From contig OY970123.1 in assembly GCA_963705905.1 (NCBI GenBank), positions 134,919-198,918 of the forward strand: a DNA stretch of 64,000 nt. The letters run 5' to 3'. Below the pieces are notes generated by a model. The model was not told the origin of the DNA. It saw only the letters and a program-made list of their open reading frames with translations, and made no database searches. Origin of the DNA: an uncultured Chloroflexia bacterium (GTDB taxonomy: Bacteria > Chloroflexota > Dehalococcoidia > GIF9 > UBA5629). Made by a program: the position numbers and the translations under genes. Of this stretch, positions 1,662 through 39,561 are shown piece by piece. Position 1 is the stretch's first letter, and every line of letters begins with the position of its first letter.

Positions 1662-1838
1662 AATCTATCTCGTCCACGATCACCTAGTACTATTTTACCA
1701 TAAACGATCGGTACCTTTAGGTCTTATATTAAGTACGAGTGAAGCCTAAGATTAAAGCGTAAACAAAAGGGTAAAAAAAGACTCCGTCAGATTAGCTTCG
1801 CGGGCCGGCTGACGGAGCCGAACACAGGAGAGCATCCC

Positions 1839-3047
1839 ATGTATGGTGGCAATTGTAGAACATCGGCAGGCAAGCCGTCAACGTTCGGCGCCGGGCCATC
1901 CTGTGATCTAAACCGCAGCAGCCACCAGGCTTCCACTATCAGGAAATGGTTCTACAGCGTATTTTGCCTTATTTTCCTGGTTTCCGGCATAGGGCTGGCC
2001 ACTCCTCAGGCGGTTCACGCAGCCGGCAGCGACTATTTGCTCGACCGTGTAATCACCTGGGGCGACGGCACCACAGAGCATATTCAAATCGGCCGGGATG
2101 CGTTTTTCTATCTTGACGGACAGAAGAAACATCTGGTCGGTATGGAAGTCTCCGGAATCAATCCAAACATAGCCAATTATTGGGAGTTTTGGCGGCCCGA
2201 TAGCCTTGCTCTCCTTGATAAACAGCTCGCATATTTTCAATCTAAGGGCATTCGCCTGGCTCGCGTCCGCATCATCCCCATTATGAATTCAGTCAAGAGC
2301 ACCGCCCAGGAAAAGGAAGCCTACACTGCGTACCTGGACCTTTTCTATAAGCATAAGATACTCGTTATCATGAATGTCGATGCAAGGCTTCTACCCCATT
2401 TTGACGGCTTTGATCCCGTTGATTTTGTCATGTGGCAGACCGACACCGTCAGCCAGTGGGCTGCCAGGCTGGCCACTATCGCCAACGGGTATTCGAACGT
2501 TGTAGCCGCCTGCGCGGACAACGAGCTCGACAATAAGGCGGGCGTTGGACAGAAATATACCACCCAGCAGGCCACGGAATATTTGACCCTGCTGACAAAT
2601 GTCCTTCGTCAAAATATGGATGCCGTGGTCACGACCACTTTTATGGCCAATAACATCGAACCGGGCATCAAGCAGGCCGGTCTGAAATTGGTGGATGTAC
2701 CCAGCCTGAACAATTACTTTGAATCGCCCGAGATTATGAAAACAAATTTGAATTCGCTATTGCCGTGGATGTCCATCCGGGGCGGGTGGTGGTGCATGGA
2801 GCTGGGTTCCTGGACAAAAGATGGCCCTAACTCCGATCAGGTCAATGCTGCCTACATCGATGCCGCCTTTGATAGCGGGGCCACCATAGCGATGTTGTTC
2901 CTAACTACTGACGTACCGCATCCGCAGTACGCTTACTTCAATAACGATGGCACGCCCAAGCCGTTCATGGTAGCCATTGCCGGTGAAGTATCCAGGCTTC
3001 AGGCGCCGGTAGCGACGTTGGATAGCCAGGTCATCGCCCGCCGCTAA
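1839..3047 (+). CDS. Secreted protein, possible glycoside-hydrolase-like TIM-barrel; short paralog of 11348..13057
   Basis: Hydrophobic N-terminal segment. LLDRVITWGDGTTEHIQIGRDAFFYLDG and C-terminal NNDGTPKPFMVAIAGEV align to the 569-aa protein encoded at 11348..13057. Contains an ADNELD motif. Start codon uncertain. Confidence 0.5.
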   Translation: MYGGNCRTSAGKPSTFGAGPSCDLNRSSHQASTIRKWFYSVFCLIFLVSGIGLATPQAVHAAGSDYLLDRVITWGDGTTEHIQIGRDAFFYLDGQKKHLVGMEVSGINPNIANYWEFWRPDSLALLDKQLAYFQSKGIRLARVRIIPIMNSVKSTAQEKEAYTAYLDLFYKHKILVIMNVDARLLPHFDGFDPVDFVMWQTDTVSQWAARLATIANGYSNVVAACADNELDNKAGVGQKYTTQQATEYLTLLTNVLRQNMDAVVTTTFMANNIEPGIKQAGLKLVDVPSLNNYFESPEIMKTNLNSLLPWMSIRGGWWCMELGSWTKDGPNSDQVNAAYIDAAFDSGATIAMLFLTTDVPHPQYAYFNNDGTPKPFMVAIAGEVSRLQAPVATLDSQVIARR

Positions 3048-3218
3048 CCCGGTTCTCTACCACCCTCTAACAACCCGCCAGGCCAACGGATCTTTCTATT
3101 TGTATTTTAGACAGCCGTCTTTAACTTGAGCTTTGTCCGGTCCTCTCTCAGAAATGGTGAGCCCCCGTTTTATCCCGGGCAGGGACGCGTAAATAGATGG
3201 GGTGATGATGATGATGGG

Positions 3219-3935
3219 CTATCTGGCGATGCGTTTTCTGCACAGATAAGCGAGATTGCTGAAACCATCCCGCCAGGCACGTAGCTTAACTTTGCCGGCG
3301 CGGGACCTGTATTTTATGGGCACTTCCTTCCAGGGGCATTTCTGGAAATAGCATGCTTCCAGCTTGAGCTCTTCCGATAGCGGCATCCCGCATGACCTCA
3401 AGGTCATTCCCTGCAGGATGCTCCTCTTGAAAACCCACATGCCTGACTGGGAATCCCGGATGTTGACGCCGTAAAGGACACGGGTCACGATGTTCAATAC
3501 GCCGTTACCGATTTTATTCTGAAAGGACATGGCGCCTTCTTCCATGCTGCCGAACCGGTCCGTAGTGATGAAGTCCAGCCCTTCCTTGTCGAGGATTTCG
3601 ATCAAGGCCGGGATATCTTCTAGGGGATAGGTTGCGTCCGCATCTCCGGTGGCGATGATGTCGCCCGTGGCGGCGTTGAACCCGGCCTTGTAAGCATTGC
3701 CGTATCCCCGCTTTGATTCATAGACCACCGTTGCTCCCGCTGATTTGGCCATCTCGCCGGTTTTATCCGTCGAGCCGTTGTCTACCACCACCACTTCCAG
3801 GTCGTAATTCATCTTTGCCAGTGCAGTCCTGGGGATAGCCTCTATAGTACGAATAATTCCCGCTTCTTCGTTCAAAGCGGGAATTATTACGCTGACTTTC
3901 TTTCTTATTACTGATTGATTAGTTGCGGTAGCCAT
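3219..3935 (-). CDS. GT2 glycosyltransferase, dolichyl/polyprenyl-phosphate sugar synthase-like (DPM1-like)
   Basis: VSVIIPALNEEAGI...VVVVDNGSTDKTGEMA...ATGDADATYP. Size and motifs match polyprenol-monophosphate glycosyltransferases. Confidence 0.8.
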   Translation of the reverse strand: MATATNQSVIRKKVSVIIPALNEEAGIIRTIEAIPRTALAKMNYDLEVVVVDNGSTDKTGEMAKSAGATVVYESKRGYGNAYKAGFNAATGDIIATGDADATYPLEDIPALIEILDKEGLDFITTDRFGSMEEGAMSFQNKIGNGVLNIVTRVLYGVNIRDSQSGMWVFKRSILQGMTLRSCGMPLSEELKLEACYFQKCPWKEVPIKYRSRAGKVKLRAWRDGFSNLAYLCRKRIAR

Positions 3936-4917
3936 ACGGATTATCTTTATGCCATTTCCATGCGCTCTCTATTATCGGTCCAACTTCCGTGTATTCCGGT
4001 TCCCAGTTCAATTCAGTCTTTGCCAGCTCGTAGCTTGCCACCAGGATAGGCGGATCGCCGGCCCGGCGTGCCAGGGTTCTTACAGGTATTTGTCTGCCGG
4101 TCACATCGCGAGCCGCTTTAACTATCTGCAGCACCGAAAATCCATTCCTGGTTCCCAGATTGTATGCTTTGTTAACATTTTTTGTCAATTCAAGATTTTT
4201 CAAGGCGGCGATATGTGCCCTGGCTATGTCGGATACATGGATATAATCCCTTACGCACGTTCCGTCCTCCGTCGGGTAGTCGGTGCCGTATAGTTCCACG
4301 CAGCCCTCCCTCTTCAGGGCGGCTTTCAAAACGTTGGGAATGAGGTGGGATTCAGGTTTATGGTCTTCGCCGTGAATGTCGCTGGCGCCGGCTGCGTTAA
4401 AATATCGCAGCGAGATATGTTTCAGCCCGTTGGCGGCGCTATATCGCTGTAGGATTCTCTCAAGCATCAATTTAGACTCGCCGTAGGTATTAAGCGGCGG
4501 GATAATGGCCTGGGTCTCTTCTATGGGGACATCCACCGGGCTTCCGTATATGGCGGCTGAGGAGGAGAAGACCAGTTTATTCACGTGGTACTTCATCATT
4601 TTATCCAGCAAATGGACGCCGTACAACAGGTTCACGTGGAAATATTTGTTGGGCTCTTTGATGGATTCGGCGACCTGAGATTCCGCCGCCAGGTGAACAA
4701 CTGCTTCAAAATTGTGGTGATCGAATATGTTGTCGAGCATATTGAGATCCCCCAGGTCGGCCTCTATAAAAATGGCCTCAGACCCGACCGCCTCGCGATG
4801 GCCCTGTTTGAGATTATCCAGGGCTATGACGGTATGGCCCTCTCTAACGAGCTGTTCGGTAACAACGCTTCCAATATAGCCTGCTGCGCCGGTTACTAGT
4901 ATTTTCATTTCTTTCAC
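3919..4917 (-). CDS. galE: UDP-glucose 4-epimerase (NAD-dependent epimerase, SDR extended)
   Basis: MKILVTGAAGYIGS Rossmann motif, YGESK catalytic motif, ~330 aa. Confidence 0.8.
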   Translation of the reverse strand: MKEMKILVTGAAGYIGSVVTEQLVREGHTVIALDNLKQGHREAVGSEAIFIEADLGDLNMLDNIFDHHNFEAVVHLAAESQVAESIKEPNKYFHVNLLYGVHLLDKMMKYHVNKLVFSSSAAIYGSPVDVPIEETQAIIPPLNTYGESKLMLERILQRYSAANGLKHISLRYFNAAGASDIHGEDHKPESHLIPNVLKAALKREGCVELYGTDYPTEDGTCVRDYIHVSDIARAHIAALKNLELTKNVNKAYNLGTRNGFSVLQIVKAARDVTGRQIPVRTLARRAGDPPILVASYELAKTELNWEPEYTEVGPIIESAWKWHKDNPYGYRN

Positions 4918-4951
4918 TCTTAAATAATAAACTTGTAATTATAGCTAATTT

Positions 4952-5197
4952 TTAATTTATAGCCATAGTCCTCTGGTCATTTTGTACCTGTTTGGGGTAG
5001 GTCGACACCTGGTCTGAAGTCTGTTCCAGGAACAGCATTACATCGTCCCGGGAAAAACGCCTGTCGCCCCTCGGCCCCATACGGTAGGATTTGACCAGGC
5101 CCTGGTCGCTCCATCTCCTGACGGTGTTGATGTGGACATTCAGGAGGGCGGCCAGTTCCCTTGTAGTGAACATGCTTTTCTTATAGTTAATGTTCAT
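4952..5197 (-). CDS. Excisionase/MerR-family HTH DNA-binding protein
   Basis: TTRELAALLNVHINTVRRWSDQGLVKSYRMGPRGDRRFSRDDV matches the excisionase-family HTH domain. Paralog of 26650..26856. First gene of an operon with galE and the GT2. Confidence 0.7.
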   Translation of the reverse strand: MNINYKKSMFTTRELAALLNVHINTVRRWSDQGLVKSYRMGPRGDRRFSRDDVMLFLEQTSDQVSTYPKQVQNDQRTMAIN

Positions 5198-5525
5198 ATT
5201 TTTACCAGTCCTAAGTATCCTTAATACAACTCCACGTTCATTAATCTGCTCTAACGTAACTTTATATCAGTAACTGCACCGTGTGAATCACCCATTGGTA
5301 CCGATTGGCCTGGTATTAAAGTCCTGTACAGACCTACCGGACTCGTGGAGTGAGACAATTCTTTTAAATGAATTGACTCTATAGCATAAGGTATAAAGAA
5401 ATCACAAAATTTACAGGCAAGTTATCAAGAATTCATAAACTTTTAAAAGAACTGATCCTAGAATGGACTTGCGGGGTTCTGCGGCGGCTGCGCCCGGACT
5501 GCTGTTAGACCGGTTTAATAAATGC

Positions 5526-6659
5526 TTATTTTACCGGAAATGCTATCTCTTTATAAAATGCTTCAATTTTATTGACAATGTTTTCCCAGTCGTATTGTCT
5601 GGCATACTCCATGCTCGACCGGGCTATGGATTTATTATCCAGCGCCTGCCGTATTTTCCCCGCCAGGTCCTCAGCCGACAGGCTGCAGATGTAGCCGTTC
5701 CTCCCCACCTTGATCAGAGCGGCTGTGGCATTCTGCCGGTAGTCTGTGGTGACGACTGGCAACCCGCAGGCATTGGCCTCCAGGGCCACCAGTCCCAGCC
5801 CTTCCCTCAGCGAAGGCAGGACAAAAACCTTCGAACTTTTCATGTAGGCGAAAACGTCATCCGATTTTTCCAGGAATCCGGTGAATTCGATATTGCTGCT
5901 TAGTCCCAGTCCTGAAGCCAACTCCATCAGGCTGTCACGTTCCGGGCCGTTGCCTATAATAATGCATTTGATTTCAGGCGTCTTTTCCTTGAGGATTTTC
6001 ACGGCTTCGATCAGCAGGCTTACGTTTTTCTCTTTTATCAGCCTGCCCGCAAATATGATGTCCGACTTCACATTGCCCGGTGCAATGCTTCCGATTTCAG
6101 CGCATTCTATGCCTGTAGGGACCACTTCGATGGGGCTTTTCATTCCCAGCGCTATCATCTGGTTTTTGGTGAATTGCGAATTGGCTATAGTCCTTTTAGC
6201 CAGGTAGGTGGCCATTTTCTCGATGAACCTACCTGCCATGCCGCGAGCGCCCAGGTACTCATACCAGTACGCGCCCCAGGCTTCGTGCCAGGTGATGGTA
6301 AGCGGGGACTTTTTGGTGATTGAGGCGAATTTTGCAGAAAAGCAGGAAAAATAAGGGAAGTTCTGGCAGTCGATGACATCGTACCTTTCCTTTAGCAGCG
6401 CCGGCAACACATGCCAGGCGAAATAAAGGGCTTCCTTGATGGAGCGTTGGTCTCCATCCCGTATACTGATGCTGGGACAAACGCCCCACAAGCGCACCCC
6501 TTCCTTATATATTATCTCTTCGCCCTCCCAGCCCTGCATCCCCAGGATCGTGACTTCGTGCCCCCGTTTCTGAAGTCGCACGGCCAGGTCCCACACTCTT
6601 TTTTCCGCTCCTCCCACCACGTAAGGGTAAATTACATCGTAAACATAAGCGATTTTCAT
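5526..6659 (-). CDS. Glycosyltransferase family 4
   Basis: True start taken at the internal Met (MKIAYVYDVIYPYVVGGAEKRVWDL). The ORF's upstream extension is Arg-rich junk and would overlap the gmhB frame. GT4 EX7E-type C-terminal region. Confidence 0.75.
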   Translation of the reverse strand: MKIAYVYDVIYPYVVGGAEKRVWDLAVRLQKRGHEVTILGMQGWEGEEIIYKEGVRLWGVCPSISIRDGDQRSIKEALYFAWHVLPALLKERYDVIDCQNFPYFSCFSAKFASITKKSPLTITWHEAWGAYWYEYLGARGMAGRFIEKMATYLAKRTIANSQFTKNQMIALGMKSPIEVVPTGIECAEIGSIAPGNVKSDIIFAGRLIKEKNVSLLIEAVKILKEKTPEIKCIIIGNGPERDSLMELASGLGLSSNIEFTGFLEKSDDVFAYMKSSKVFVLPSLREGLGLVALEANACGLPVVTTDYRQNATAALIKVGRNGYICSLSAEDLAGKIRQALDNKSIARSSMEYARQYDWENIVNKIEAFYKEIAFPVK

Positions 6660-6700
6660 GATAATCTCACCGCTCCGCGAGTTAAGAATTCCAGTTCCCA

Positions 6701-7234
6701 TCAATTGCCTCGGCTCTCCGGATCCTGGCTCAATATCCAGTCTACCGCATTGCGAAATGAGCCTGCGAAATAGTCCGGGGCGCTTGCTCCGGGTTGCCCG
6801 ACGCTTACGGCCGCTTTGCAGCCCGCATTGCGCGCCATGCCTATATCGATGTCGCTGTCTCCGATGACATAAGATTGGCTGAGGTCTATTCCCAGGTCGG
6901 CGGCGGCGGCCAGCGCCAGTTTGGGCGCCGGTTTGCGGCAATCACAGTTATCTTCGGGATGGTGGGGACAATAGTAAATGGCATCTACGCTTGTGCCCAG
7001 CTTTTTAAGATCGTCGACCATCCTGGCATGGATCTTTTTAAGCGTTTCCTCATCGAAGTAACCCCTGGCGATGCCCGACTGGTTGGTAATTACCACAACC
7101 TTGAAATTGTGCTTTTTAAGCAGTTTGATCCCCTCGGCGACACCTGGGAAAAGTTCGAAATCCTCGGGGCGGCTGCAGTAGGGGACGTCTCTGGCCATCG
7201 TCCCATCACGGTCGATAAAGACTGCCTTATGCAT
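6701..7234 (-). CDS. gmhB: D-glycero-D-manno-heptose 1,7-bisphosphate phosphatase (HAD-IIIA)
   Basis: FIDRDGT...ITNQSGIARGYF...CDCRKP...GDSDIDIGMARNAG. Canonical GmhB motifs, 177 aa. Confidence 0.8.
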   Translation of the reverse strand: MHKAVFIDRDGTMARDVPYCSRPEDFELFPGVAEGIKLLKKHNFKVVVITNQSGIARGYFDEETLKKIHARMVDDLKKLGTSVDAIYYCPHHPEDNCDCRKPAPKLALAAAADLGIDLSQSYVIGDSDIDIGMARNAGCKAAVSVGQPGASAPDYFAGSFRNAVDWILSQDPESRGN

Positions 7235-28659: not shown

Positions 28660-31600
28660 ATGCGGATTAAGTTCCCTGCCATTATAAAAGTGATCGCCGG
28701 CATGCTGGCCGTCGCCGTATTTATCATCCCTGCTAATATGGTTTCACCTGCAACCGTATCCGCGGACCCGGGTATTATGAGATGGGATACCGTCCTGACG
28801 CCCGGGTACCTGGCGAATAAGTGGGATATCGATAATCTGCATGGCCTGGGCGCCAACATGGGCCAGGGCAGCGAGATCATCGACATGGCTGCCGGCAACG
28901 ACGGCAAAACCGTTGTCGCCATCGTCAGGATGTGGGTGCCGGACAATACCGGTGGTATAGCTTCCCCGGGCGGCGCTTACAAAAACATTGTACTTATGTC
29001 TTTTAACGGTGGAATATCTTTCTCGGACTCTCTCTACCATACTCAATTTCCCAATGCCTTAACAGCCCCCAATTTTTTTGAAGTTGAGATGGCCACCGAT
29101 AATCCCCTGGCTATGATACTGACCTCCGAGGACTTCTCGGGGACTCATACCGGTCCCAGGTTAGTGTGGGAAACAGGTTGGGTGCTCGGATATGCGCCCT
29201 GGAGCGTGGTCTTTGACGGCACAAGTGCCCTGTCAGCCGGGGAGACCATCCGCTGTGCAGATGTCTCACCCGACTACGGCGGCTACCGTGACGTTGCTTT
29301 CGGCACCGAGGGTCCAACGGGCGGACGTTGGGGCGCCATATCGAGCAAGCCTTACGGCACCACCCAGGTCCAGCTCAATGCCAACGGCACGCCGCCCCAA
29401 AACTTCGGCACTGCCAGCACTTCCGGAATCGATTATGAGGCCCTCAGGTTTTCTCCGACTTACGGCGGCGATGCTTCGGTAGCCCTGGTATATGCTGATG
29501 TAAACGCCACTTATTATAATGTAGCTTTTCGCGATATTAACCAGAATACCACTGTAAACTATGCTTTCACCTCCCCCGGTATCGAGGTTAAGAACCCTAC
29601 TTCCGCCCCGCTCAGCTCGCCCAACTGGTCGCAGTTGAACAGGACTGACCTGGAACTTCCCTCCGACTTCTCGGGCCAGTCCTCCTCCCTGCGCAGGGTC
29701 TATATAAGCCTTGACGCCTTTGGGTCCAAAGCGGTTGGAAGCTGCGAGGACGGAATTTACAGGATAGACGATACTACACCCTACGTTTTAATGGATACCA
29801 CCACCACTCCGGATAAGTCCATATATAGTATTGCTTATTATGGCACCTATGCCTCGGGCAAGCTGCTGGCCGGCGAGCGCATGGGCCAGCCCTGTGCGGC
29901 TACCGTGCCGACCTGGTTTACGGACTCCCCGACCACCTGTCCGATTCCCTGCTGGTATCCCGCGCTCAAGCCCGCTACCGGCGCCGGCAACCAGGGGGCA
30001 TGCAACACCGGGGCCAAGAACGGCGCCGGCTCGGCCGTTGTCCGCTGGAATGGCGACGGCTCGCTGGGCCTGGTAGCTACGGGTTCTCTACCTGATACAG
30101 TTTATGCCAATCAACCTGGACGCGCGGGCGGCGGGGTTGAATTGCCCGGCACACCTACAGCTACTGCTGCCGGCAAGGGACTCTGGTACCAGATGCAGGG
30201 AGGAAGCGGGGCATCTTTCGTTCCACCTGTAGCACTCGCAGTTGGCTTTGATGCCGTGAATAATGATGAATCGGCCTTTGCCGTCTCCCGCAATAACGGC
30301 GAGACCTGGAACGAGCTGGCCATTATCGATACTACCATCGACTGGTTCAACGATGTAGCCGTATCCCCCGATTGCACGACCATCTACCTGGCTTCGGTCA
30401 ATGAGAACACTGGAATAGGCTGCAACCAGTTCGACAGCGTATGGCGCAGCACTATTAACCCCAACGTCGCAGCGCCTCTACCTGCTATCCCGCCTCTGGG
30501 CACTTACTGGGAGCGTGTCTTCTGCCATGTGACCGCCGGCAACTGCAGTCTTCAACAGTCCAAACTGCCCATACTCCGCGTAGTGGAATCCTGCACCGAT
30601 AAGCCTACCGGCGAGATCGTCGCCTGGGCAGCTCAGTATGCCAACGCAACCAGCAGCAGCACCAGCGGTGGCGTGATGGCCTGGTCGCCCGACTACGGCG
30701 ATTACTGGGCCAGCATTACCCCAAGGTATCCCGTACAGGACTTCGCCTTTGAAACAAGCACCACTATGTACGTATTAAGCGCGGACGGCATTGTCCAGAG
30801 GCTCCCCTACACCGGCACCTCCTGGACAACGAATTTGCCCAACTACGATACGCAGCTTCTTTACGGTCACACCATCGCAGCTGTCCCCGACGGAAAGGTC
30901 CTGGTCGGCGCCGGCGTGAATGCTCCTTATCCGATGGCTTACTCCCTGGATAAGGGCGTCACTATGAGTGTCCTCGCAGATCCTATTGCCGGGCACGGCA
31001 ACGAACATGTCATCTTCGATGTGGACTTCGCTAACAACAGCTTCATCTACATGGCCGATGACAGTGTTTTTAATAACTCGCCGAACTTCACGGTCAATAA
31101 CGGCGGCACCGCAGTCGGCACTGTGTACCGCAATACCATCCCGGCCAATACCAGGTGGGTTGACGGAGACATGATGAGCGCGGCCAATGGCAACGGCTAT
31201 GTCTTCTCTGATGACACCAGCCTGTGGTGGTCGACCGGCGGCTCCAACAATCCTCCGCACATAGTCGGCCAGTTCGGCCTGGTCCAGGCCTGGACGGGCG
31301 ATCCCCAACCGGCGCTTTACAGCGCCCATGACAACGTCACCAACAGCAGTGGCTATCAAGATAGTGCCGTCTGCCGCACACTCAAGCCTCGCGACGGCAT
31401 GCCCAAACCGGGCATCAAGTGGGCCTGTCTCGATATATTCGCTCCGCTCAATCAGAAGAACGTATTCTTCACACTTGAGCCGACTTCGCTCAAGGCCTGC
31501 GGTTGCTGCACTCTCGACACCAACACCACCCTTTATGCCATCGACAACGAGCGCTACGGAGCCCTGGCTGACCTGGCAGGCCGCTGGAACTTCCATCTCC

Positions 31601-32529
31601 TGGATACGGCTGCGAGCGCATGGAACGATAACCCCGGTTATACTCCTACCGCGAACCAGGGTATGCTCTGGGCATACACGGACTGTCTGGCCAAGAAAGG
31701 CCCGGTACTCAAGACCCCGGCTGACCAGTTCCTGGTCGGCGCCGACCCCGTCACCGGCCGCAACCAGCAGATCGACCTCGCCTGGGAACAGCTCTGTCTT
31801 TCCATCTGGTATCAACTTCAGATAGCTAAAGACAAGGATTTCACCCTGAGAGTCAACCCCGCTGTCAACTGGGGCAACGGCTCCACCGGCGTGATCTCCG
31901 CCGTTACGGGCTCTCTGCTGATGCAAATGGATACAACTAACAACACCAGCCCTGCCGCCTGGATACCTCCCGGATCTCTTCCTGAAGCAGGCGCCATCTA
32001 CTACTGGAGGATCCGCTCGGCCAAATCGGCTACCACCCAGATCGCTGACAGCCCGTGGTCCGAGACCCGCAGCTTCACCATCAAAGCAGGCTTCGTCGTC
32101 ACCTCCAACTACCTTGGCGTAGAGCTGCTCAGCCCGGGCAACAGTGCCACCGGGATAACAACCAAACCGACCCAGTTCTCATGGAGCCCCTGGCAGGATG
32201 CTACCAAGTACGAGTTCGACCTGGCCAAGGATTCCGAGTTCAAGCAGATGGTTGTCACCGCCAACACCACTACGACAGCTTATCAATACGCCAATGCCCT
32301 GGACTATAATGCCGTCTATTTCTGGCGTGTAAAGGCTGTCGAGGTCAACGGCCAGAACATCCCGAGCGATTGGTCGGCCACCTTCACCTTTACGACAGAA
32401 ACGGTCCCGATCATACCTCCGCCCCCCACGCAGGCCCCTATTCCCGTCTGGGTATGGGTGCTTATGGCGCTGGGCAGCATTATCGCCGTCGGCATCCTCT
32501 TCCTTATCATGAGGACCCGGCGCATTTAA
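28660..32529 (+). CDS. Giant cell-surface (S-layer-like) protein with BNR/Asp-box beta-propeller repeats, Fn3-like domains and a C-terminal TM anchor
   Basis: 1289 aa with N-terminal signal/TM. Asp-box-like repeats (SRNNGETW, SPDYGDYW). Two Fn3-like C-terminal modules (YYWRIRSA, YFWRVKAV). Ends PPPPTQAPIPVWVWVLMALGSIIAVGILFLIMRTRRI. Numerous N-x-S/T sequons. Confidence 0.7.
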   Translation: MRIKFPAIIKVIAGMLAVAVFIIPANMVSPATVSADPGIMRWDTVLTPGYLANKWDIDNLHGLGANMGQGSEIIDMAAGNDGKTVVAIVRMWVPDNTGGIASPGGAYKNIVLMSFNGGISFSDSLYHTQFPNALTAPNFFEVEMATDNPLAMILTSEDFSGTHTGPRLVWETGWVLGYAPWSVVFDGTSALSAGETIRCADVSPDYGGYRDVAFGTEGPTGGRWGAISSKPYGTTQVQLNANGTPPQNFGTASTSGIDYEALRFSPTYGGDASVALVYADVNATYYNVAFRDINQNTTVNYAFTSPGIEVKNPTSAPLSSPNWSQLNRTDLELPSDFSGQSSSLRRVYISLDAFGSKAVGSCEDGIYRIDDTTPYVLMDTTTTPDKSIYSIAYYGTYASGKLLAGERMGQPCAATVPTWFTDSPTTCPIPCWYPALKPATGAGNQGACNTGAKNGAGSAVVRWNGDGSLGLVATGSLPDTVYANQPGRAGGGVELPGTPTATAAGKGLWYQMQGGSGASFVPPVALAVGFDAVNNDESAFAVSRNNGETWNELAIIDTTIDWFNDVAVSPDCTTIYLASVNENTGIGCNQFDSVWRSTINPNVAAPLPAIPPLGTYWERVFCHVTAGNCSLQQSKLPILRVVESCTDKPTGEIVAWAAQYANATSSSTSGGVMAWSPDYGDYWASITPRYPVQDFAFETSTTMYVLSADGIVQRLPYTGTSWTTNLPNYDTQLLYGHTIAAVPDGKVLVGAGVNAPYPMAYSLDKGVTMSVLADPIAGHGNEHVIFDVDFANNSFIYMADDSVFNNSPNFTVNNGGTAVGTVYRNTIPANTRWVDGDMMSAANGNGYVFSDDTSLWWSTGGSNNPPHIVGQFGLVQAWTGDPQPALYSAHDNVTNSSGYQDSAVCRTLKPRDGMPKPGIKWACLDIFAPLNQKNVFFTLEPTSLKACGCCTLDTNTTLYAIDNERYGALADLAGRWNFHLLDTAASAWNDNPGYTPTANQGMLWAYTDCLAKKGPVLKTPADQFLVGADPVTGRNQQIDLAWEQLCLSIWYQLQIAKDKDFTLRVNPAVNWGNGSTGVISAVTGSLLMQMDTTNNTSPAAWIPPGSLPEAGAIYYWRIRSAKSATTQIADSPWSETRSFTIKAGFVVTSNYLGVELLSPGNSATGITTKPTQFSWSPWQDATKYEFDLAKDSEFKQMVVTANTTTTAYQYANALDYNAVYFWRVKAVEVNGQNIPSDWSATFTFTTETVPIIPPPPTQAPIPVWVWVLMALGSIIAVGILFLIMRTRRI

Positions 32530-32858
32530 TTTGTATTGAAATAGGCTGGCCTAGGATTCCGAGTTCAAGCAGATGGTTGTCACCGCCAACACCACTACGA
32601 CAGCTTACTAATACCAGAATGCCCTGGACTACAATGCCGTCTATTTCTGGCGAGTAAAAGGCCGTAGAGGTTAATGGCCAGAACATCCCGAGCGGATTGG
32701 TCGGCCACCTTCACCTTTACAACAGCATCGGTCCCGATCATCCCTCCGCCACCCACGCAGCCCCCTATCCCCGTCTGGGTATGGGTGCTTATGGCGCTGG
32801 GCAGCATTATCGCAGTCGGCATCCTCTTCCTCATCATGAGGACCCGGCGCCTTTGACG
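32530..32858 (+). pseudogene. Degenerate tandem duplicate of the 3' end (~300 bp) of the surface-protein gene
   Basis: 32551..32858 aligns to 32229..32529 at ~90% identity, with an in-frame stop (ttactaatacc) and frameshifts. Only a 60-aa ORF remains, re-encoding the TM anchor. Confidence 0.6.
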
Positions 32859-32859
32859 C

Positions 32860-33125
32860 ATTTGATTCGTTTTGATTCGTTTTCGGTTCGTTTTAAACAG
32901 GCGTCGTATCTGGTTTATGTTGAAATAGGCTTTGTTTTTGGTTTGTTTTGAAATCGGTTCGTTTTGATTCGTTTTTGATTCGTTTTAAATAAGCGTCGTA
33001 TCTGGTTTGTGTCGAAAAAGATTCGTTTTTGATTCGTTTTAAATAAGCGTCGTATCTGGTTTGTGTCGAAAAAGATTCGTTTTTGATTTGTTTTTTAGAT
33101 ACAAGTTGTAGCTGATTCGTTTCTC
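32860..33125. repeat. Tandem repeat array of ~54-bp units
   Basis: The unit gattcgtttttgattcgttttaaataagcgtcgtatctggtttgtgtcgaaaaa occurs twice perfectly, flanked by degenerate copies. GATTCGTTTT sub-repeats throughout. Confidence 0.7.
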
Positions 33126-33132
33126 GAAATAA

Positions 33133-33170
33133 AAAAGGGGGCGGCCTCGTGCCGCCCCCTTTCTATTTAG
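33133..33170 (+). terminator. Rho-independent terminator
   Basis: aaaaaaggggGCGGCctcgtGCCGCcccctttctattt: GC-rich 9-bp stem plus T-tract. The A-tract on the other side makes it potentially bidirectional. Confidence 0.7.
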
Positions 33171-33399
33171 CGCTTTTTGCTAAGAGTCATTTTCTACTGT
33201 CTGGGCGTTTTTAAAGGTTTAACTAATCTTAAACATTGCTTAATACTTGGATTGTAGAATGCACTGGCATCAACTGAAATAATAGTGGAAGATATGTTCC
33301 TTTTTTTGTCATAAATAGTAAACCTGTTATTATTATTTTTCGTTATAGTAGTTGAATAATCATCTTGCTGGGGCCGGATAATATAGCGGAGACACCTGA

Positions 33400-34020
33400 T
33401 TGAAAAATGTAATCTATGTTGCAATCACCCTGACTATAGCAGCTGCTGCGCTCTTTTGCTTTCAGATGGCATTCAAGGCATTCGAAGTATTTGATATCTC
33501 GATGGAGCCCACCTATAAGACCGGCGATTACATTTTCGTCAATAAATTGGCCTATATTTACGATGCCCCCAAGCGGGGAGATGTAGTGGCCATATACTCA
33601 CCGGAAAGCACGGCGCAACTTTCTCTCAATCCTTTTGAACAGCAAAATTCGTCACAATACATTAAACGTATTATTGCTCTGCCGGGCGATAAGGTAGAGA
33701 TAAAAGATCAAAAGGTATATGTTAACGGCCAGCCGGTTGATGAGCCATACTTATTGGAACCCTGTGACTATGACTATGACCAGCAGACTATCCGTCAAGG
33801 CAGCTATTTTGTTCTGGGCGACAACAGGAACCACAGCGATGACTCACACAGGGGCTGGCTGAGTGCGCGGTCGGACATTATCGGTAAAGTGTGTCTATGC
33901 TACTGGCATGCGGATTACCCTGATATCCATGTTGTGCTGATACCTGCCTTTTTCCTGGTTGTGGGGGCTTTTTCCAAGGATTCGATTTTCGGCTTTTTAA
34001 GAAAACTAGTCAACAGATAA
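33400..34020 (+). CDS. lepB: Signal peptidase I (S26 family)
   Basis: GDYIFVNKLAY, GDVVAI, RIIALPGDKV, YFVLGDNRNHSDDSHRGW boxes B-E. Apparent TTG start. Confidence 0.8.
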   Translation: MKNVIYVAITLTIAAAALFCFQMAFKAFEVFDISMEPTYKTGDYIFVNKLAYIYDAPKRGDVVAIYSPESTAQLSLNPFEQQNSSQYIKRIIALPGDKVEIKDQKVYVNGQPVDEPYLLEPCDYDYDQQTIRQGSYFVLGDNRNHSDDSHRGWLSARSDIIGKVCLCYWHADYPDIHVVLIPAFFLVVGAFSKDSIFGFLRKLVNR

Positions 34021-34065
34021 AGTGCCTGGTCTGGTGGGCCTGTGTTACCTGTGCAGCCTGATAGC

Positions 34066-34311
34066 CTATTTCTTTTTCGCAGCTACTTTTGCTTTCTTTA
34101 CCTTCATGGGTTTGCCGCAGCAGATGATATCGCAGACGTCTGCGCAACCGCAGGTCTCATCTACTGTTACCAGCAGTCCGCATACCCCACACATATATGA
34201 ATCACCGCGGGAGGTCTTCACTGCTGATTTCTTGACCGCTACCGCCTTCTTTTTAGTCGCAACTTTCTTAGGGGCAGCCTTCTTGGTCGCAACCGACTTT
34301 TTTACAGCCAT
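34066..34311 (-). CDS. Small Lys/Ala-rich, Cys-rich protein (81 aa), function unknown
   Basis: Strong RBS (AGGAGGT-6-ATG). N- and C-terminal KKAAPKK/KVKKAKVAAKKK tails flank a 9-Cys core CGVCG...CGCADVCDIICCG. Confidence 0.6.
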   Translation of the reverse strand: MAVKKSVATKKAAPKKVATKKKAVAVKKSAVKTSRGDSYMCGVCGLLVTVDETCGCADVCDIICCGKPMKVKKAKVAAKKK

Positions 34312-34433
34312 AATTATACCTCCTATTAGCTATTATCTTGATAATAAACTATATTTATAATAACTTCAATATGTGCGCGGACAGAATTGCATTATCACTG
34401 TTCAGTTTATAAAATTTTAAGTGGGGGCAAAAG

Positions 34434-34643
34434 GTGAAAGTAAGGGTTGACCGGGAGCTGTGTACAGGAGTTGGAAATTGTGTGGCCATGGCTCCAACCG
34501 TCTTTAAATTGGACAAAAGCAATAAGGCTATCGTATTGGATAAAGACAGCGTTGATAGTCAATTGTTAATGGACGCGGCCGAAAGTTGCCCGGTCGATGC
34601 CATTATTATTGAAGATGACGAGGGCAACCAGATGTACCCGTGA
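34434..34643 (+). CDS. fdx: Small ferredoxin (single [3Fe-4S]/[4Fe-4S] cluster)
   Basis: CTGVGNC...CP(VDAI) motif, 69 aa. Confidence 0.75.
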   Translation: MKVRVDRELCTGVGNCVAMAPTVFKLDKSNKAIVLDKDSVDSQLLMDAAESCPVDAIIIEDDEGNQMYP

Positions 34644-34679
34644 TTTAGCTGCATATTTTGGAGAAGAAGGAGGATAACT

Positions 34680-35126
34680 ATGGCAAAAAAACAAGGGCCG
34701 GTCACCAAGGCATCCAGGGCATTACTGACGATGTTAAACCGGGCAATCGCCAGGGAAATACAGGTATCAATTCAGTATATGTGGCAGCATGTACAATGGG
34801 CCGGTGTCAAAGGTTTTGCTGTTCATGACGCGCTGAAATCAATTGCCATATCGGAGATGAAGCACGCCGAATCCATCGCGGAGCGGTTATTTTATCTTGG
34901 AGAAATCCCGACTACCAAACCGGACCCCATTTTCGTAGGAACAACACTTAAAGAGATGATCGCCAATGATGTGGCCGCGGAAGTGACAGCCGTCAAAATG
35001 TATAAGGATATTATCAAGATGGCCCTCAAGGAGGGCGACGAAACGACGGCCCAACTCTTCCGGGAGATACTCGAGCAGGAAGAGGAACACCATGACACCT
35101 TCACTACGCTGCTGGAAGACCTGTAA
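34680..35126 (+). CDS. bfr: Bacterioferritin / ferritin-like diiron protein
   Basis: Strong RBS GAAGGAGG. SEMKHAESIAERLFYLGEIP and EEEHHD ferroxidase-site residues, 148 aa. Confidence 0.75.
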   Translation: MAKKQGPVTKASRALLTMLNRAIAREIQVSIQYMWQHVQWAGVKGFAVHDALKSIAISEMKHAESIAERLFYLGEIPTTKPDPIFVGTTLKEMIANDVAAEVTAVKMYKDIIKMALKEGDETTAQLFREILEQEEEHHDTFTTLLEDL

Positions 35127-35236
35127 CAGCCGGATAACCGGCGGCCGTTGAAGAATTATTTTATTGCCCACGTGTAAGCAATTTGTGGGGTCTTACATGC
35201 TTGCGCTTTACTGAAATATTGCCGGAGCACGAAGAC

Positions 35237-35647
35237 TTATTGGTTAATTTTGACCTGTGTTCCGTTCATGATCGGGGCGTATCTGTAAGAGCCCTGGTAG
35301 GTTATTTTTGACATGGCCGTTTTTATCTGCGGCACATCCAGAACCCCACTGATTATCCACACCAATTTTACCTGCTTGTTGGCTGTGAGCCGGGTCAGGA
35401 TGGGGACAAAGTCCTGTGTGCCCTGGCTGTAATATTCTATTGGACCGATTTCTATATTTTCCTGGAGAGTGTGCTGTTTCATGCTCTCCAGGGAGGTTTT
35501 GGCGACCGCATTATCAAGGACTAAAAATGCCGCGTAGGTTTTATTGGGATCATAGGTTATTTTAGGCTGAAAAAGCGAACATGACGATACAATAAGGGAC
35601 AACATTACCAGGGAACATGATATAAATATTGCCGTTCGTTTCTTCAT
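35237..35647 (-). CDS. Hypothetical lipoprotein
   Basis: Lipobox-like N-terminus MKKRTAIFISCSLVMLSLIVSSCS. Confidence 0.5.
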   Translation of the reverse strand: MKKRTAIFISCSLVMLSLIVSSCSLFQPKITYDPNKTYAAFLVLDNAVAKTSLESMKQHTLQENIEIGPIEYYSQGTQDFVPILTRLTANKQVKLVWIISGVLDVPQIKTAMSKITYQGSYRYAPIMNGTQVKINQ

Positions 35648-35678
35648 TTATTTACTATTCCTTTACTAAAGGCTTGCT

Positions 35679-36431
35679 TTAATGGCCTTCAGCAGTATTA
35701 CCATTCGTATCCAGGAGATAAACATCAAAGTTAACCGACCCTGTTGCTGTATGTCCCGACTTGTCGCTTACCTGAACGTTGACGGTATATTGCCCGGGTA
35801 CTCCCGGTGGTAGCCAGCCTACCCGGCTGGCTTTACCGTCTTCAATGCCGGTGCCAAAAAGCTTGCCCACCGGCGCAGACCAGACAATTGTTAGTTGACT
35901 CGGGTCTGCGTTGGGGAAAGTACATTGTATATCAGAAACGACGTCATACTCTACCCGTTTGGACACCGTCACCGGGCCTGAGGAGGGCAATGTGAACTTT
36001 AAGTAAATAGTGTTATCTTCAGGCTGGTTGCGCAGGGGATTTAACACTACGTTGAAGGTCCTGCTTTGTGTTGCCTGGGCTCCGGCTTCATTAGTGACCT
36101 TAACGGTTACCGTATAAGCCCCGACGGCACTTGGAGTCGTCCATGTAACTTTCGATCCCTCACCTTCCAATGTTCCGTTATCTACCGACCAATCATAGGT
36201 CAGCTTGGTAGCATTTGGATCCACGGCTACGCAGGTAAGCGGGCCTTTGGACGAAGGCGCCCATTCCAAAATGCCTACTATTCCCTTAATGATCGGTGGT
36301 TCTGCCGCCTGCTGAGGCACCGGTGTGGTAGCAGGAGGAATAGCGACCGGCTGGGGTGCAGAAGAACAGCCGGCAATCAACAACGTGAATGCCGATGTGA
36401 CAACGAATAGAAGTACGCACAGTTTTCTCAT
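35679..36431 (-). CDS. Lipoprotein with two PKD/Ig-like repeats
   Basis: Lipobox LLIAGCSS. Two internally repeated ~80-aa beta-sandwich modules (TYDWSVDNG...YTVTVKVTN and TIVWSAPVG...YTVNVQVSD). Confidence 0.6.
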   Translation of the reverse strand: MRKLCVLLFVVTSAFTLLIAGCSSAPQPVAIPPATTPVPQQAAEPPIIKGIVGILEWAPSSKGPLTCVAVDPNATKLTYDWSVDNGTLEGEGSKVTWTTPSAVGAYTVTVKVTNEAGAQATQSRTFNVVLNPLRNQPEDNTIYLKFTLPSSGPVTVSKRVEYDVVSDIQCTFPNADPSQLTIVWSAPVGKLFGTGIEDGKASRVGWLPPGVPGQYTVNVQVSDKSGHTATGSVNFDVYLLDTNGNTAEGH

Positions 36432-36604
36432 GATCTTTCCTTTTTTATCTAATGTAGTGTAAGAAAATTCATCTCACTATGTCAAAGTTTGACGGTTAAA
36501 ATAAGTATGTTTTATACGTATAACTGAAATAGCGTTGTTTGGTTGCAAAAAATTCGACGATAATATTTTTCGGGGAACTTGCCTTATCACAACGTTAGTG
36601 TCAT

Positions 36605-36637
36605 AATTAAGCTGACTTAATTAAGCGAGCTTAATTA
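36605..36637. promoter_or_regulatory. Putative metalloregulator operator: perfect 20-bp palindrome TAATTAAGC-GA-GCTTAATTA overlapping a 7-4-7 inverted repeat
   Basis: Located 12 bp upstream of the DtxR-family gene start. Resembles DtxR/IdeR-type TTAGGTTAGCCTAACCTAA boxes. Confidence 0.5.
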
Positions 36638-36649
36638 CAGGAGGGACAG

Positions 36650-37564
36650 ATGGAAAGCGAAAGGACTCAGGAATACCTTGAAGCTATATATAAGAGGCAG
36701 AGAATAGAGAAGCCGGTTGCTACATCGATCCTGGCTGAAGACTTAAAAGTGTCTCCTCCGGCCGTCACTGATATGCTTCGCAGCCTTGAAAGCAGGGGTT
36801 TAATCAACTACAAGGTCAACAAGGGGGCGGTCCTAACCGATTTAGGTAGGGAACAGGCTGTGGCGGTTATCAGGCGGCATCGTCTATGGGAGAGGTTTCT
36901 CACCGATGTTCTGGGTATGAAGTGGGACAAGGTGCATGAGGAAGCCTGTAAACTGGAGCATGTTACTTCCCCGGAGATCGAAGAGGGCCTGTCGCAGGTA
37001 CTGGGCAACGTTGATACCTGCCCGCACGGGCACTCCATACCAGATAAGCGAGGCAATATTAAAGAAGAAGGTATGTTGCCCCTTGGCAAATGTCAGGCGG
37101 CTCAGCCGCTATGCATTGCAGCCATCGATAAAGAGGCCCCGGCCTTGCTCAGGAAAATCGAGAAATTGGGTTTAAGACCGGGTGTTCCTCTAAAAATTGT
37201 CAAGAAAAATAAGGATGGGACGCTTGATTTGGAGGCGCATGGAGAAAAACTTTCAATCAACAGTGAAATGGCCGGCGTATTGTTAGTCAGGCCTGAGTCC
37301 AAAATTGAGGCGCAAGTCAATACGCAGGAGATACCCCTCAGCAAGTTAACCAGCGGGCATTCCGGGATCATTCGCTCCTGCGGGAGCGGACGAAGTTCGT
37401 TGGGGCGTTGTCTTTCGCTGGGTTTTACGCCTGGCAGCATGGTAAAGATGATGGAGAATTTTCGCAGTGGTCCTGTGCTGGTGAAGGTTCACGATACGGA
37501 GGTCGCCCTGGGGCGGGGTCTGGCTGAGAAAATTATCGTTTATCCGAATGCTAAGATATGCTAG
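36650..37564 (+). CDS. DtxR/MntR-family metal-dependent regulator fused to two FeoA (SH3-like) domains
   Basis: N-terminal DtxR HTH plus metal-site residues (RHRLWERFL...CPHGH). Two C-terminal FeoA-like repeats. Overlaps the feoB start by 7 nt. Confidence 0.8.
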   Translation: MESERTQEYLEAIYKRQRIEKPVATSILAEDLKVSPPAVTDMLRSLESRGLINYKVNKGAVLTDLGREQAVAVIRRHRLWERFLTDVLGMKWDKVHEEACKLEHVTSPEIEEGLSQVLGNVDTCPHGHSIPDKRGNIKEEGMLPLGKCQAAQPLCIAAIDKEAPALLRKIEKLGLRPGVPLKIVKKNKDGTLDLEAHGEKLSINSEMAGVLLVRPESKIEAQVNTQEIPLSKLTSGHSGIIRSCGSGRSSLGRCLSLGFTPGSMVKMMENFRSGPVLVKVHDTEVALGRGLAEKIIVYPNAKIC

Positions 37565-39561
37565 AAAAAACGCAGGATAAATCAATCGTTGTGGCGCTGG
37601 CAGGTGCTCCCAATGTCGGTAAAAGCACTGTCTTCAATCTTTTGACCGGCTTGTCACAACATGTCGGTAATTGGCCGGGCAAGACCGTCGAGCAGAAAAC
37701 AGGCGAACTTCGGCATGGTGATCTAAAGATCAGCATCGTTGACCTGCCCGGCACTTACAGCCTTACGGCCAACTCGGCTGAAGAGCAGATAGCCAGAGAC
37801 TATCTGGTCAAGGAAAACCCCGATGTCGTTGTCGCGGTCCTAAATGCAGCCAGTTTGGAACGGAATTTGTACCTGGTGGCCGAGCTCATTGAGCTTTCGC
37901 CGCGCCTGATAATAGCTTTAAATATGATCGATGTGGCCCATCAGCAGGGCATGAAAGTAGACCCCGAAGCTTTAGCATCTGCCTTGAATGTGCCGGTAAT
38001 ACCGGTCGTCGCCAATAAAAACAAAGGATTAAACGAGTTGGTGGCGCAGATAGTACTTGAATATGAGCATCCTGCGGGCTCACGTGAAGTTAAACATATA
38101 GAGTACGGCAGCGAGATAAAAGACACAATTGACCACGTTGCCGGTTTGTTGACGCCTGAAATTACAGACCCTTACCCACAGCACTGGACTGCCATGAAAC
38201 TGCTTGAAGGCGATGAGCAGATCAACAAACTGATCCGCATGCGCTGTCCTGCTGAACGCTGGCAGATTCTGGATGACTACCTGGGTGAGAACGAATCCGC
38301 GGCGGTGGATATAGCGACACTGAGGTTTGAATGGGTGGAAAAGATGGGGGCGGTTGCGCAGGAAAAACCTCACATAGGGTGGGTCTCATTGTCGGAGCGA
38401 ATTGACCGGGCGGCGACGCATCCCATATTAGGACTGCTCATCCTTGTGGGAATTTTAGGTTTGATTTTCTGGCTGGTCTATAGCCTTGGCATTCCCATCC
38501 AGAAGTTTCTGGAAGTAAACCTTATCGAAAACGGCAGGGCCCTCGTGTACGGGAACCTGTCCTTTATGCCTTTCTGGTTCCAGAGTTTCCTGGCCGACGG
38601 CTTACTCAACGGTGTCGGAACCGTTTTGACCTTTATACCTATATTGTTCTTCTTTTTTGCTGCATGGGCGGCTGTGGAAGATATAGGCTATTCGGCACGG
38701 GCAGCTTTCGTGACCGATAGGTTCATGCATTTGATTGGCCTGCATGGCAAGTCCTGCCTGCCGCTCGTGCTGGGCTTCGGGTGCAACGTGCCTGCAGTGC
38801 TGGGGACACGTATTATCGATTCCCCTCGTGCCCGCCTGTTAACTATTTTGTTAACGCCCCTGGTTCCATGCTCAGGGAGGATGGCGGTAATCGCCATTGT
38901 GGCGGCGGCTTTCTTCGGAGGCCAGGCGGTACTGGTTTCTATCGGGATCATCATCTTCAGCTTGTTGATGCTGGTACTGATCGGAATTATTATGAACCGC
39001 TTTGTCATTCGTGGTGAAAGTAGTGCCTTGATTATGGAATTGCCCTTATACCACGTGCCCGACTTACGTGGGATAGGTATAGTTACATGGCAGAATATCC
39101 TGGCCTTTATCAAGCGCGCCGGAACCATTATCCTGGCTGTCTCACTGGTAATCTGGCTTCTGTCGATAATACCCAACGGCAACATCAATGACAGCCTCCT
39201 TTCACAATTTGGAAAAATGATTGAACCGGCGGGACGGTTGATGGGTCTGAACTGGCAGATGATGGTAGCGCTTATATCGAGCTTTATAGCCAAGGAAAAT
39301 ACCATAGCTACCCTTGGTATATTGCTGGGTGGCAGCGGTGCAGACCTTGCTCAACAGCTGAAGCAAATCCTGACCCCTGCTGCGGCGCTCTCCTTTCTGG
39401 TTTTTCAGGTGCTGTTTATCCCCTGCGTGGCGACCGTTGCCGCTATCAAGCAGGAAACAGGTGGATGGCGCTGGCCGCTTTTCAGCGTGGCCTTTCAACT
39501 CATACTATCGTCCGTAATGGCTATTTTAATCTATCAAATAGCGCGCTTGACAGGCTTTTAA
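37558..39561 (+). CDS. feoB: Ferrous iron transporter FeoB
   Basis: G-protein motif ALAGAPNVGKST, DLPGTYSL, NMID. Followed by a polytopic membrane domain, 667 aa. Confidence 0.9.
   Translation: MLEKTQDKSIVVALAGAPNVGKSTVFNLLTGLSQHVGNWPGKTVEQKTGELRHGDLKISIVDLPGTYSLTANSAEEQIARDYLVKENPDVVVAVLNAASLERNLYLVAELIELSPRLIIALNMIDVAHQQGMKVDPEALASALNVPVIPVVANKNKGLNELVAQIVLEYEHPAGSREVKHIEYGSEIKDTIDHVAGLLTPEITDPYPQHWTAMKLLEGDEQINKLIRMRCPAERWQILDDYLGENESAAVDIATLRFEWVEKMGAVAQEKPHIGWVSLSERIDRAATHPILGLLILVGILGLIFWLVYSLGIPIQKFLEVNLIENGRALVYGNLSFMPFWFQSFLADGLLNGVGTVLTFIPILFFFFAAWAAVEDIGYSARAAFVTDRFMHLIGLHGKSCLPLVLGFGCNVPAVLGTRIIDSPRARLLTILLTPLVPCSGRMAVIAIVAAAFFGGQAVLVSIGIIIFSLLMLVLIGIIMNRFVIRGESSALIMELPLYHVPDLRGIGIVTWQNILAFIKRAGTIILAVSLVIWLLSIIPNGNINDSLLSQFGKMIEPAGRLMGLNWQMMVALISSFIAKENTIATLGILLGGSGADLAQQLKQILTPAAALSFLVFQVLFIPCVATVAAIKQETGGWRWPLFSVAFQLILSSVMAILIYQIARLTGF

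Follow-up and report, generated by a model that had tools for sequence, protein, structure and literature searches.

Desulforedoxin (Dx) is a classic model iron-thiolate protein, in which four cysteines bind a single iron; the protein is a homodimer with a distorted tetrahedral site for one Fe in each monomer. To our knowledge its only known forms are a free-standing 36-residue dimer and a domain within superoxide reductase (SOR) or desulforubrerythrin. The pairing of Bfd with bacterioferritin (Bfr) is established, and the N-termini of Dps are lysine-rich. In Campylobacter jejuni desulforubrerythrin a Dx-like domain is fused to rubrerythrin (Rbr), and Rbr and flavodiiron proteins (FDP) require small electron donors of the rubredoxin (Rd) type (PMC7482061). 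Dps binds DNA non-specifically by its N-terminal tails (PMC8199988; PMC10849575). Here we describe an 81-residue protein encoded on the minus strand of a 64,000-nucleotide stretch of DNA from an uncultured Dehalococcoidia bacterium (contig OY970123.1, positions 134,919 to 198,918), which we call the window and in whose numbering all positions below are given unless a locus is named. Its core is predicted to place the Dx scaffold in a new setting, alongside a Cys/His triad that Dx lacks and polycationic tails like those of histones; the protein has no database name. The gene, its parts and its upstream signals are as follows.

34066-34311, minus strand: whole gene of the 81-residue lysine-tailed, Dx-like protein (stop codon 34066-34068), from the open reading frame (ORF) listing, translation and homologs
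34207-34311, minus strand: N-terminal Lys/Ala/Val/Thr-rich tail, predicted to be disordered, residues 1-35, net charge +13
34105-34206, minus strand: acidic core with predicted Dx fold, residues 36-69 (GDSYMCGVCG...CDIICCGKPM), net charge -4
34066-34104, minus strand: C-terminal Lys-rich tail, residues 70-81 (KVKKAKVAAKKK), plus the stop codon, net charge +7
34319-34324, minus strand: Shine-Dalgarno sequence AGGAGG, 7 nt before the ATG, read from the sequence
34341-34369, minus strand: sigma-70-like promoter (TTGAAG, 17 nt, TATTAT), about 30 nt 5' of the ATG, from a consensus scan
34331-34346: perfect 7-2-7 palindrome TATTATCTTGATAATA, overlapping the -10 element of the promoter-like site

A first-pass annotation of this DNA had read the same ATG-initiated ORF, with exactly this sequence and the same AGGAGG ribosome-binding site, as a metal-binding cysteine core between histone-like tails. 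The protein contains 20 lysines (pI ~9.9) and seven cysteines, at positions 41, 44, 54, 56, 60, 64 and 65 (8.6% of residues), where nine had been counted in that annotation.

Four of the seven, C41, C44, C64 and C65 (CxxC...CC), are invariant in all 235 of the aligned homologous cores with 25-residue spacing that we used for column counts, as is G45. The consensus of these cores is G-D-x-Y-x-C-x-V-C-G-L-x-V-T-V-D-E-x-C-G-C-x-[DE]-x-[CH]-D-I-I-C-C-x-x-P-M. The invariant cysteines align with C9, C12, C28 and C29 of Dx and are putative Fe(Cys)4 ligands. The only Pfam family matched is of the desulfoferrodoxin type (PF06397 Desulfoferrod_N, E = 0.02); TIGR00319 scores 9.9 against a cutoff of 36.05, and the NCBIfam desulfoferrodoxin models are all sub-threshold. 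A profile built from the family found Desulfovibrio gigas desulforedoxin as its top match in the PDB (E = 0.0014), with the four cysteines aligned and a single 4-residue loop insertion, and hhalign paired the family core with desulforedoxin at a probability of 96.1%. The AlphaFold2 (AF2) model of core residues 33-73 is all-beta with a predicted local distance difference test score (pLDDT) of 85.5. When this core model was compared with the PDB by Foldseek, 1dxg_A came first (template-modelling scores TMq 0.82 and TMt 0.92, root-mean-square deviation 1.2 Å), followed by desulfoferrodoxin N-domains; everything else had a TM score of at most 0.61. Because Pfam, the family profile, hhalign and AF2 with Foldseek agree, we consider with high confidence that the core is a metal domain of the Dx fold.

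Single-sequence phmmer against the PDB had ranked plant PHD fingers first (E ~1e-3). These are matches of cysteine composition, which fell to E 0.14 with the family profile, when desulforedoxin became first. PsaE matches in the same search were due to the Lys/Ala composition of the tails and were gone with the profile.

Profile searches had been suggested in the first-pass annotation for the metallothionein, zinc-ribbon, HMA and H1/Hc1 families. In Pfam and NCBIfam at E ≤ 10 the 81-residue protein matched none of these, nor rubredoxin or Hc2; the searches returned only desulfoferrodoxin-type families and a marginal valine--tRNA ligase match over the whole protein (E 7.7). Motifs point the same way. 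Rubredoxins and zinc ribbons have two CxxC knuckles whereas the second pair here is CC, with no PF00301 or zinc-ribbon match, and genuine rubredoxins in neighbouring genes score normally in the family scans. HMA domains carry MxCxxC in a beta-alpha-beta-beta-alpha-beta fold, unlike the core modelled here, which is all-beta and Dx-like and has no HMA match in Pfam. By these profile and motif tests the protein appears to lie outside the H1/Hc1/Hc2, metallothionein, HMA, rubredoxin/zinc-ribbon and Bfd families. The cysteine core that had been noticed earlier is genuine and of a metal-binding type; it is not a generic cluster, however, but a Dx-fold domain, as predicted, with an extra triad.

Beyond fold and CxxC...CC ligands with their adjacent Cys pair, the likeness to D. 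gigas desulforedoxin (1DXG/1CFW) and Desulfoferrod_N extends to the signature residues GD-Y-C-x-CG and CCG-x-M, to an acidic core, and to an occurrence in anaerobe lineages. Some family loci lie among Rd, SOR and Rbr genes, and at one of them (L066) a canonical Dx gene is 0.5 kb off. CxxC and CC are separated by 19 residues in the family and by 15 in Dx; the family loop holds three additional Cys/His residues in about 90% of members, whereas Dx has no further cysteine; the polycationic disordered tails have no counterpart in the compact ~36-residue Dx; and the 81-residue protein stays under the PF06397 and TIGR00319 cutoffs. Loop length, extra ligands and tails are departures from the Dx family definition. 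The 81-residue protein is a distant homolog of desulforedoxin and the Desulfoferrod_N domain and would work in a similar way.

The beta-hairpin loop of the core is 4 residues longer than that of Dx and carries the remaining cysteines as C54-x-C56-x3-C60. Triad states were classed in 259 cores: CCC in 156, CCH in 45 and wholly absent in ~26, with only a handful of partial triads. At position 60 there are 159 Cys and 50 His among the 235 cores (~20% His). The triad is kept or lost as a unit, and a swap between Cys60 and His is what a metal-binding position would show. We therefore propose that the CxCx3C/H triad is a second metal site, which we regard as fairly probable. The site would lie at the hairpin tip, and its fourth ligand could come from a conserved Asp, from water or from the second subunit of a dimer.

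The Lys/Ala-rich basic tails on either side of the cysteine core were described correctly in the first-pass annotation. In the full-length AF2 model pLDDT falls below 50 at residues 6-30 and 75-81, which suggests that the tails are disordered. Among family members N-tails are 28 residues long at the median (10th-90th percentile 17-54) and have a median net charge of +9, reaching at least +4 in 90% of members; the C-tail has a median of 11 residues (4-29) and a median net charge of +6. The cores between them are acidic (median net charge -5, negative in 97% of members). Tail charge and character are conserved family-wide and tail sequence is not, and the 4-Cys variants retain their tails. The Lys/Ala-rich low-complexity composition and the charge of the 81-residue protein are as in H1/Hc tails. 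The kinship with H1/Hc1 that had been suggested for them does not hold as family membership, given the lack of a profile match, and the likeness is one of composition only. From this composition the tails may bind nucleic acid, for which we would put the chances a little short of even. In two ANME-1 loci (L027, 2059-2277; L034, 5004-5225) a mixed-charge C-terminal extension (…EMEPPKRPSHFARVEEVEKKKGKKKDAPVW) is present instead of a basic N-tail.

A Dehalococcoidia metagenome-assembled genome (MAG) has a database entry with exactly the 81-residue sequence, under the name 'hypothetical protein'. A word-indexed search with 90% clustering gave 325 homologs at E ≤ 0.01, and a profile search of 1.84 billion representatives gave 430 clusters at 50% identity, of which 153 reached E ≤ 1e-10. 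In the GTDB species, each represented by one genome, 196 encoded relatives were detected. We inspected the genome loci of the best 80 of these 196 hits, which are MAGs without exception, and a non-redundant subset of ~77 loci. Record titles among these best 80 name Dehalococcoidia/Chloroflexota, Thermodesulfovibrionales/Nitrospirota, Thermodesulfobacteriota (Syntrophaceae, Syntrophorhabdus), Omnitrophota, WOR-3, Planctomycetia and ANME-1 archaea, lineages which we take to be strict anaerobes. Precomputed Pfam domains among the homologs amount to two weak PF07382 HC2 matches (P0098, P0104). The 81-residue ORF is thus genuine and belongs to a conserved, widespread and unannotated gene family.

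We then consider the genes around it. In the window these are, in order:

33400-34020, plus strand: S26 signal peptidase (lepB), convergent with the 81-residue gene
34434-34643, plus strand: 69-residue ferredoxin with a single 4Fe-4S cluster, divergent (Pfam Fer4_15, 1.4e-13)
34680-35126, plus strand: 148-residue ferritin-like (bacterioferritin/DPS-like) protein (Pfam Ferritin, 9.7e-31)
35237-35647, minus strand: 136-residue ORF without family match
35679-36431, minus strand: 250-residue PKD-domain protein
36650-37564, plus strand: DtxR-FeoA fusion
37558-39561, plus strand: FeoB

The ferritin-like protein scores 65.5 bits with TIGR00754 bfr against a cutoff of 125.55, and its Dps matches are weak. 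By eye, the products of the two minus-strand genes that separate the Bfr-like gene from dtxR-feoA begin like lipoproteins, and both genes are kept in the same order in close relatives. The ferredoxin arrangement beside the family gene is repeated in L001, L011, L012 and L014. Close relatives keep the entire window arrangement; the DtxR-FeoA/FeoB, PKD-domain and lepB neighbours are limited to very close relatives.

No universal gene neighbour was found among the ~77 non-redundant loci, the distant members lying in unrelated contexts. A ferritin-like, Rbr, Rd, SOR or FDP gene lies within 1.5 kb of the family gene in 14 of the 77 loci, from five phyla, against 2 of the same 77 with such a gene at a distance of 2.5 kb or more. 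These loci are not phylogenetically independent; still, they hold at least 5-6 distinct arrangements in five phyla. In the window, L011, L012 and L014 a ferritin-like gene is divergent from the family gene across an intervening ferredoxin gene, and such a gene follows directly 3' on the same strand in the Dehalococcoidia loci L020, L025, L030 and L050, whose remaining neighbours are mutually unrelated, so that the Bfr-like adjacency occurs within Dehalococcoidia in two different gene orders. A Bfr-like neighbour is also present in WOR-3 (L054) and a DPS-like ferritin-type protein in Planctomycetia (L079), and further FDP, Rd or Rbr neighbours occur in L013, L049, L055 and L062. Of the iron-homeostasis neighbourhood described in the first-pass annotation, the genes are as stated and an iron/redox link is seen beyond this genome, but the DtxR/FeoB part is lineage-specific and only the ferritin-like neighbour recurs. 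Three loci have the family gene (GENE) within a long O2/ROS-defence cluster on one strand, given here in locus coordinates:

L063, Omnitrophota, 3109-7198, one strand: FDP, Rbr-like, Rd, GENE, SOR, PNPOx-like, 78-residue ORF with a CPWC motif (glutaredoxin-like by eye), TrxR-like
L066, Omnitrophota, 1800-5809, same strand: FDP, Rd, GENE, PNPOx-like, canonical Dx, Rbr, FMN reductase, SOR
L079, Planctomycetia, 3099-6814, same strand: flavin reductase-Rd, FDP, GENE, DPS-like ferritin, 1Fe-SOR, Rbr-like

In L063 and L066 the N-domain of the SOR is rubredoxin-like (RUBY_RBDX) and not Dx-like.

From core, tails and gene context we propose that the family consists of iron-thiolate redox or metal proteins of the network with which anaerobes handle reactive oxygen species (ROS) and iron, held by their tails on a polyanion, probably DNA; taken as a whole, we see this proposal as evenly balanced. 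A role in the ROS/iron redox network, considered separately, is slightly favoured. The core would act as a one-electron iron-thiolate redox module or an iron-binding module, like desulforedoxin or rubredoxin, through a redox-active Fe(Cys)4 site of the Dx type, with Zn as a possible alternative. It might serve partners in O2/ROS defence and iron storage, namely ferritin/Bfr/DPS-like proteins, Rbr, SOR and FDP. In the window the adjacent Bfr-like ferritin is a likely partner, together with the divergent ferredoxin, and these likely partners suggest that the protein may work much as Bfd does, in the mobilisation or deposition of iron. The polycationic tails would anchor the acidic redox core to a polyanion, most likely DNA by analogy with the Dps N-terminus, and such tethering could position iron/ROS chemistry beside the nucleoid.

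Each of the systems to which this proposal appeals resembles the family in part. Desulforubrerythrin of C. jejuni, like rubrerythrin and reverse rubrerythrin, joins an Fe(Cys)4 module of the Dx/Rd type to a ferritin-like diiron four-helix bundle (PMC7482061). At 6 loci a ferritin-like gene follows the family gene immediately on the same strand, which is the Dx-then-bundle order of desulforubrerythrin. Module and bundle are, however, separate genes in the family, the putative partner is mostly Bfr/DPS-like and not a rubrerythrin, and in the window the genes are divergent with the ferredoxin in between. Dps and the mycobacterial HU/MDP1-type Lys/Ala-tailed proteins share with the family flexible Lys-rich tails and a link to iron/oxidative-stress chemistry, but the Dps tails sit on a ferritin-like cage whereas those of the family sit on a 34-residue Dx-like module, with no sequence relationship. 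With Bfd the family has in common that the gene for a small Cys-ligated iron protein stands beside a bacterioferritin-type gene, and the family protein may likewise be a redox partner in iron mobilisation. Bfd differs in its [2Fe-2S] cluster, fold and Cys pattern, the 81-residue protein has no Fer2_BFD match at E ≤ 10, and only a minority of family members have the bfr-like adjacency.

A bolder and rather unlikely version of this scheme is a nucleoid-tethered Dx with two metal sites which, with a ferritin-like protein, forms a 'split Dps / split desulforubrerythrin' that guards the anaerobe chromosome during O2 exposure. The core would shuttle electrons or iron to ferritin-like proteins, Rbr, SOR and FDP, and in the triad the Dx scaffold would have gained a novel kind of metal or redox-sensing site. 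The carriers are uncultured anaerobes that include Dehalococcoidia, Nitrospirota, Syntrophia, Omnitrophota and ANME-1. If the proposal is right, a missing small redox partner would be added to anaerobe oxygen-defence and iron-storage systems, and redox chemistry physically tethered to the nucleoid would be suggested. The protein is small and should be easily expressed, so that the idea of a 'redox bead on cationic strings' architecture is directly testable.

A number of observations weigh against the proposed role. The PF06397 score of 14.9 bits lies under the 23-bit gathering cutoff, and the AF2 model of the whole protein, with a pLDDT of 54, was too poor for comparison, so that the core-only model was used. 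About 80% of loci have no ROS/iron neighbour, and the gene order seen most often, DUF3108-gene-NadB-like (10-11 loci of the Syntrophia type), is lineage-specific and uninformative. ANME-1 members lack the N-tail. Since no H1/Hc1/Hc2 profile matches the tails of the 81-residue protein, the case for DNA binding is one of composition. The core metal in vivo could be either Fe or Zn. Source names of the homologs are all 'hypothetical protein' bar one JGI label, 'rubrerythrin', and in the literature on desulforedoxin-like, lysine-rich or nucleoid proteins we found no paper on the family.

The same protein could instead be a histone-like nucleoid or chromatin protein with no redox or iron role, in which the cysteine core is a structural Zn knuckle or dimerisation module and the Lys/Ala tails compact DNA. 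Family-wide conservation of tail charge would fit this, as would the strong Shine-Dalgarno sequence and promoter-like site of a gene that is mostly a stand-alone unit in housekeeping contexts. Chlamydial Hc1/Hc2 and eukaryotic H1 also have K/A/P/T-rich repetitive tails, and the two weak HC2 matches among the homologs lie in this direction. Hc1, Hc2 and H1 have no metal-binding core, however, the family tails are conserved in composition only, and the 81-residue protein itself matches no H1/Hc1/Hc2 profile at E ≤ 10. A structural Zn knuckle leaves unexplained the restriction to anaerobic lineages, and the nucleoid explanation likewise accounts neither for the 14 of 77 loci at which an Rd, Rbr, SOR, FDP or ferritin gene is close by nor for the all-or-none behaviour of the Cys/His triad, so that we judge it unlikely. 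An RNA- or ribosome-associated role, with the tails on rRNA or other RNA, would make the protein a small basic Cys4-knuckle protein like the zinc-binding ribosomal proteins. It is indeed small and very basic, has a Cys4 knuckle and a strong Shine-Dalgarno sequence, and forms a single-gene unit that adjoins KsgA at one locus. Ribosomal-protein operon context was seen in none of the 77 loci, some genomes hold 3-4 paralogs, the low-complexity tails vary in length from 17 to 54 residues (10th-90th percentile), and the ROS/iron context is left unexplained; these points make such a role quite improbable.

A metallothionein-like buffer, metallochaperone or storage peptide, binding several soft metal ions via all seven thiolates, would account for seven cysteines in a 34-residue core with CxC and CC motifs, and for the iron-homeostasis neighbourhood in the window. 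Metallothioneins typically have a cysteine content above 15-30%, whereas seven cysteines in 81 residues make 8.6% here, and the Cys pattern is accounted for by the Dx ligands and one triad. There is no metallothionein or HMA profile match in Pfam or NCBIfam. Furthermore, the four Dx ligands are invariant while the other three are dispensable in ~10% of members, which keep their tails, and the prediction for the core is an ordered Dx fold, as opposed to a cluster templated by metal. We regard this alternative as improbable. Of the roles offered in the first-pass annotation, a metal-sensing nucleoid protein is thus conceivable, and nothing speaks positively for a metallochaperone or a storage peptide. 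Finally, a 112-residue ORF on the plus strand (34022-34360) overlaps the gene, and the first-pass annotation had allowed that the minus-strand frame might be an antisense artefact of it. The 81-residue protein is on record, its 325 homologs and the 430 clusters span bacterial phyla and ANME-1 archaea with invariant Cys (C41/C44/C64/C65 in 235 of 235 cores) and Gly, and the Shine-Dalgarno sequence and promoter-like site are conserved. Hence it is the 112-residue ORF that is the shadow frame, and the chance that the 81-residue gene is an artefact is practically nil.

Upstream of the gene the GGAGG of the Shine-Dalgarno sequence is invariant across four orthologous loci, and both promoter-like hexamers, TTGAAG and TATTAT, are kept in L001, L011, L012 and L014. 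The palindrome TATTATCTTGATAATA looks like back-to-back GATAAT hexamers of Fur/PerR-type boxes. It occurs as a single exact copy across the window, and its right arm is only partly conserved in the orthologous loci. An operator role was considered and dropped, given this partial conservation and no clear second copy in the window.

Several family members depart from the common architecture. Nitrospirota carry 3-4 family paralogs in single genomes (L026/L028/L045 in one Nitrospiraceae MAG, L035/L043/L059/L069 in another), with a common tail motif SPKKQKELK and the core CxDFCDIICCGEQM. P0237 has a tandem two-domain architecture with C-H in place of the second CC, P0244 a C-terminal extension resembling a DUF2795-type domain and P0195 an N-terminal YtxH-like segment. 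No informative recurrent domain fusion was found among the longer matches, which comprise one-off extensions, the one tandem two-domain protein and repeat-protein false positives (P0167, P0266). In a Dehalococcoidia MAG (L050, 3414-3611) an apparent 1-nt frameshift beside A-runs separates the Lys-rich N-tail from the core; this is probably an assembly error rather than a pseudogene.

An Rfam scan of positions 30000-38000 gave no RNA family match, including at three T-rich repeat copies of ~54-81 nt (GATTCGTTTTTGATTCGTTTTAAATAAGCGTCGTATCTGGTTTGTGTCGAAAAA) at 32874-33100. These follow a tandem duplication of ~326 bp with 89-94% identity (32221-32854), which spans the 3' end of a 1289-residue ORF (28660-32529) and the DNA after it.

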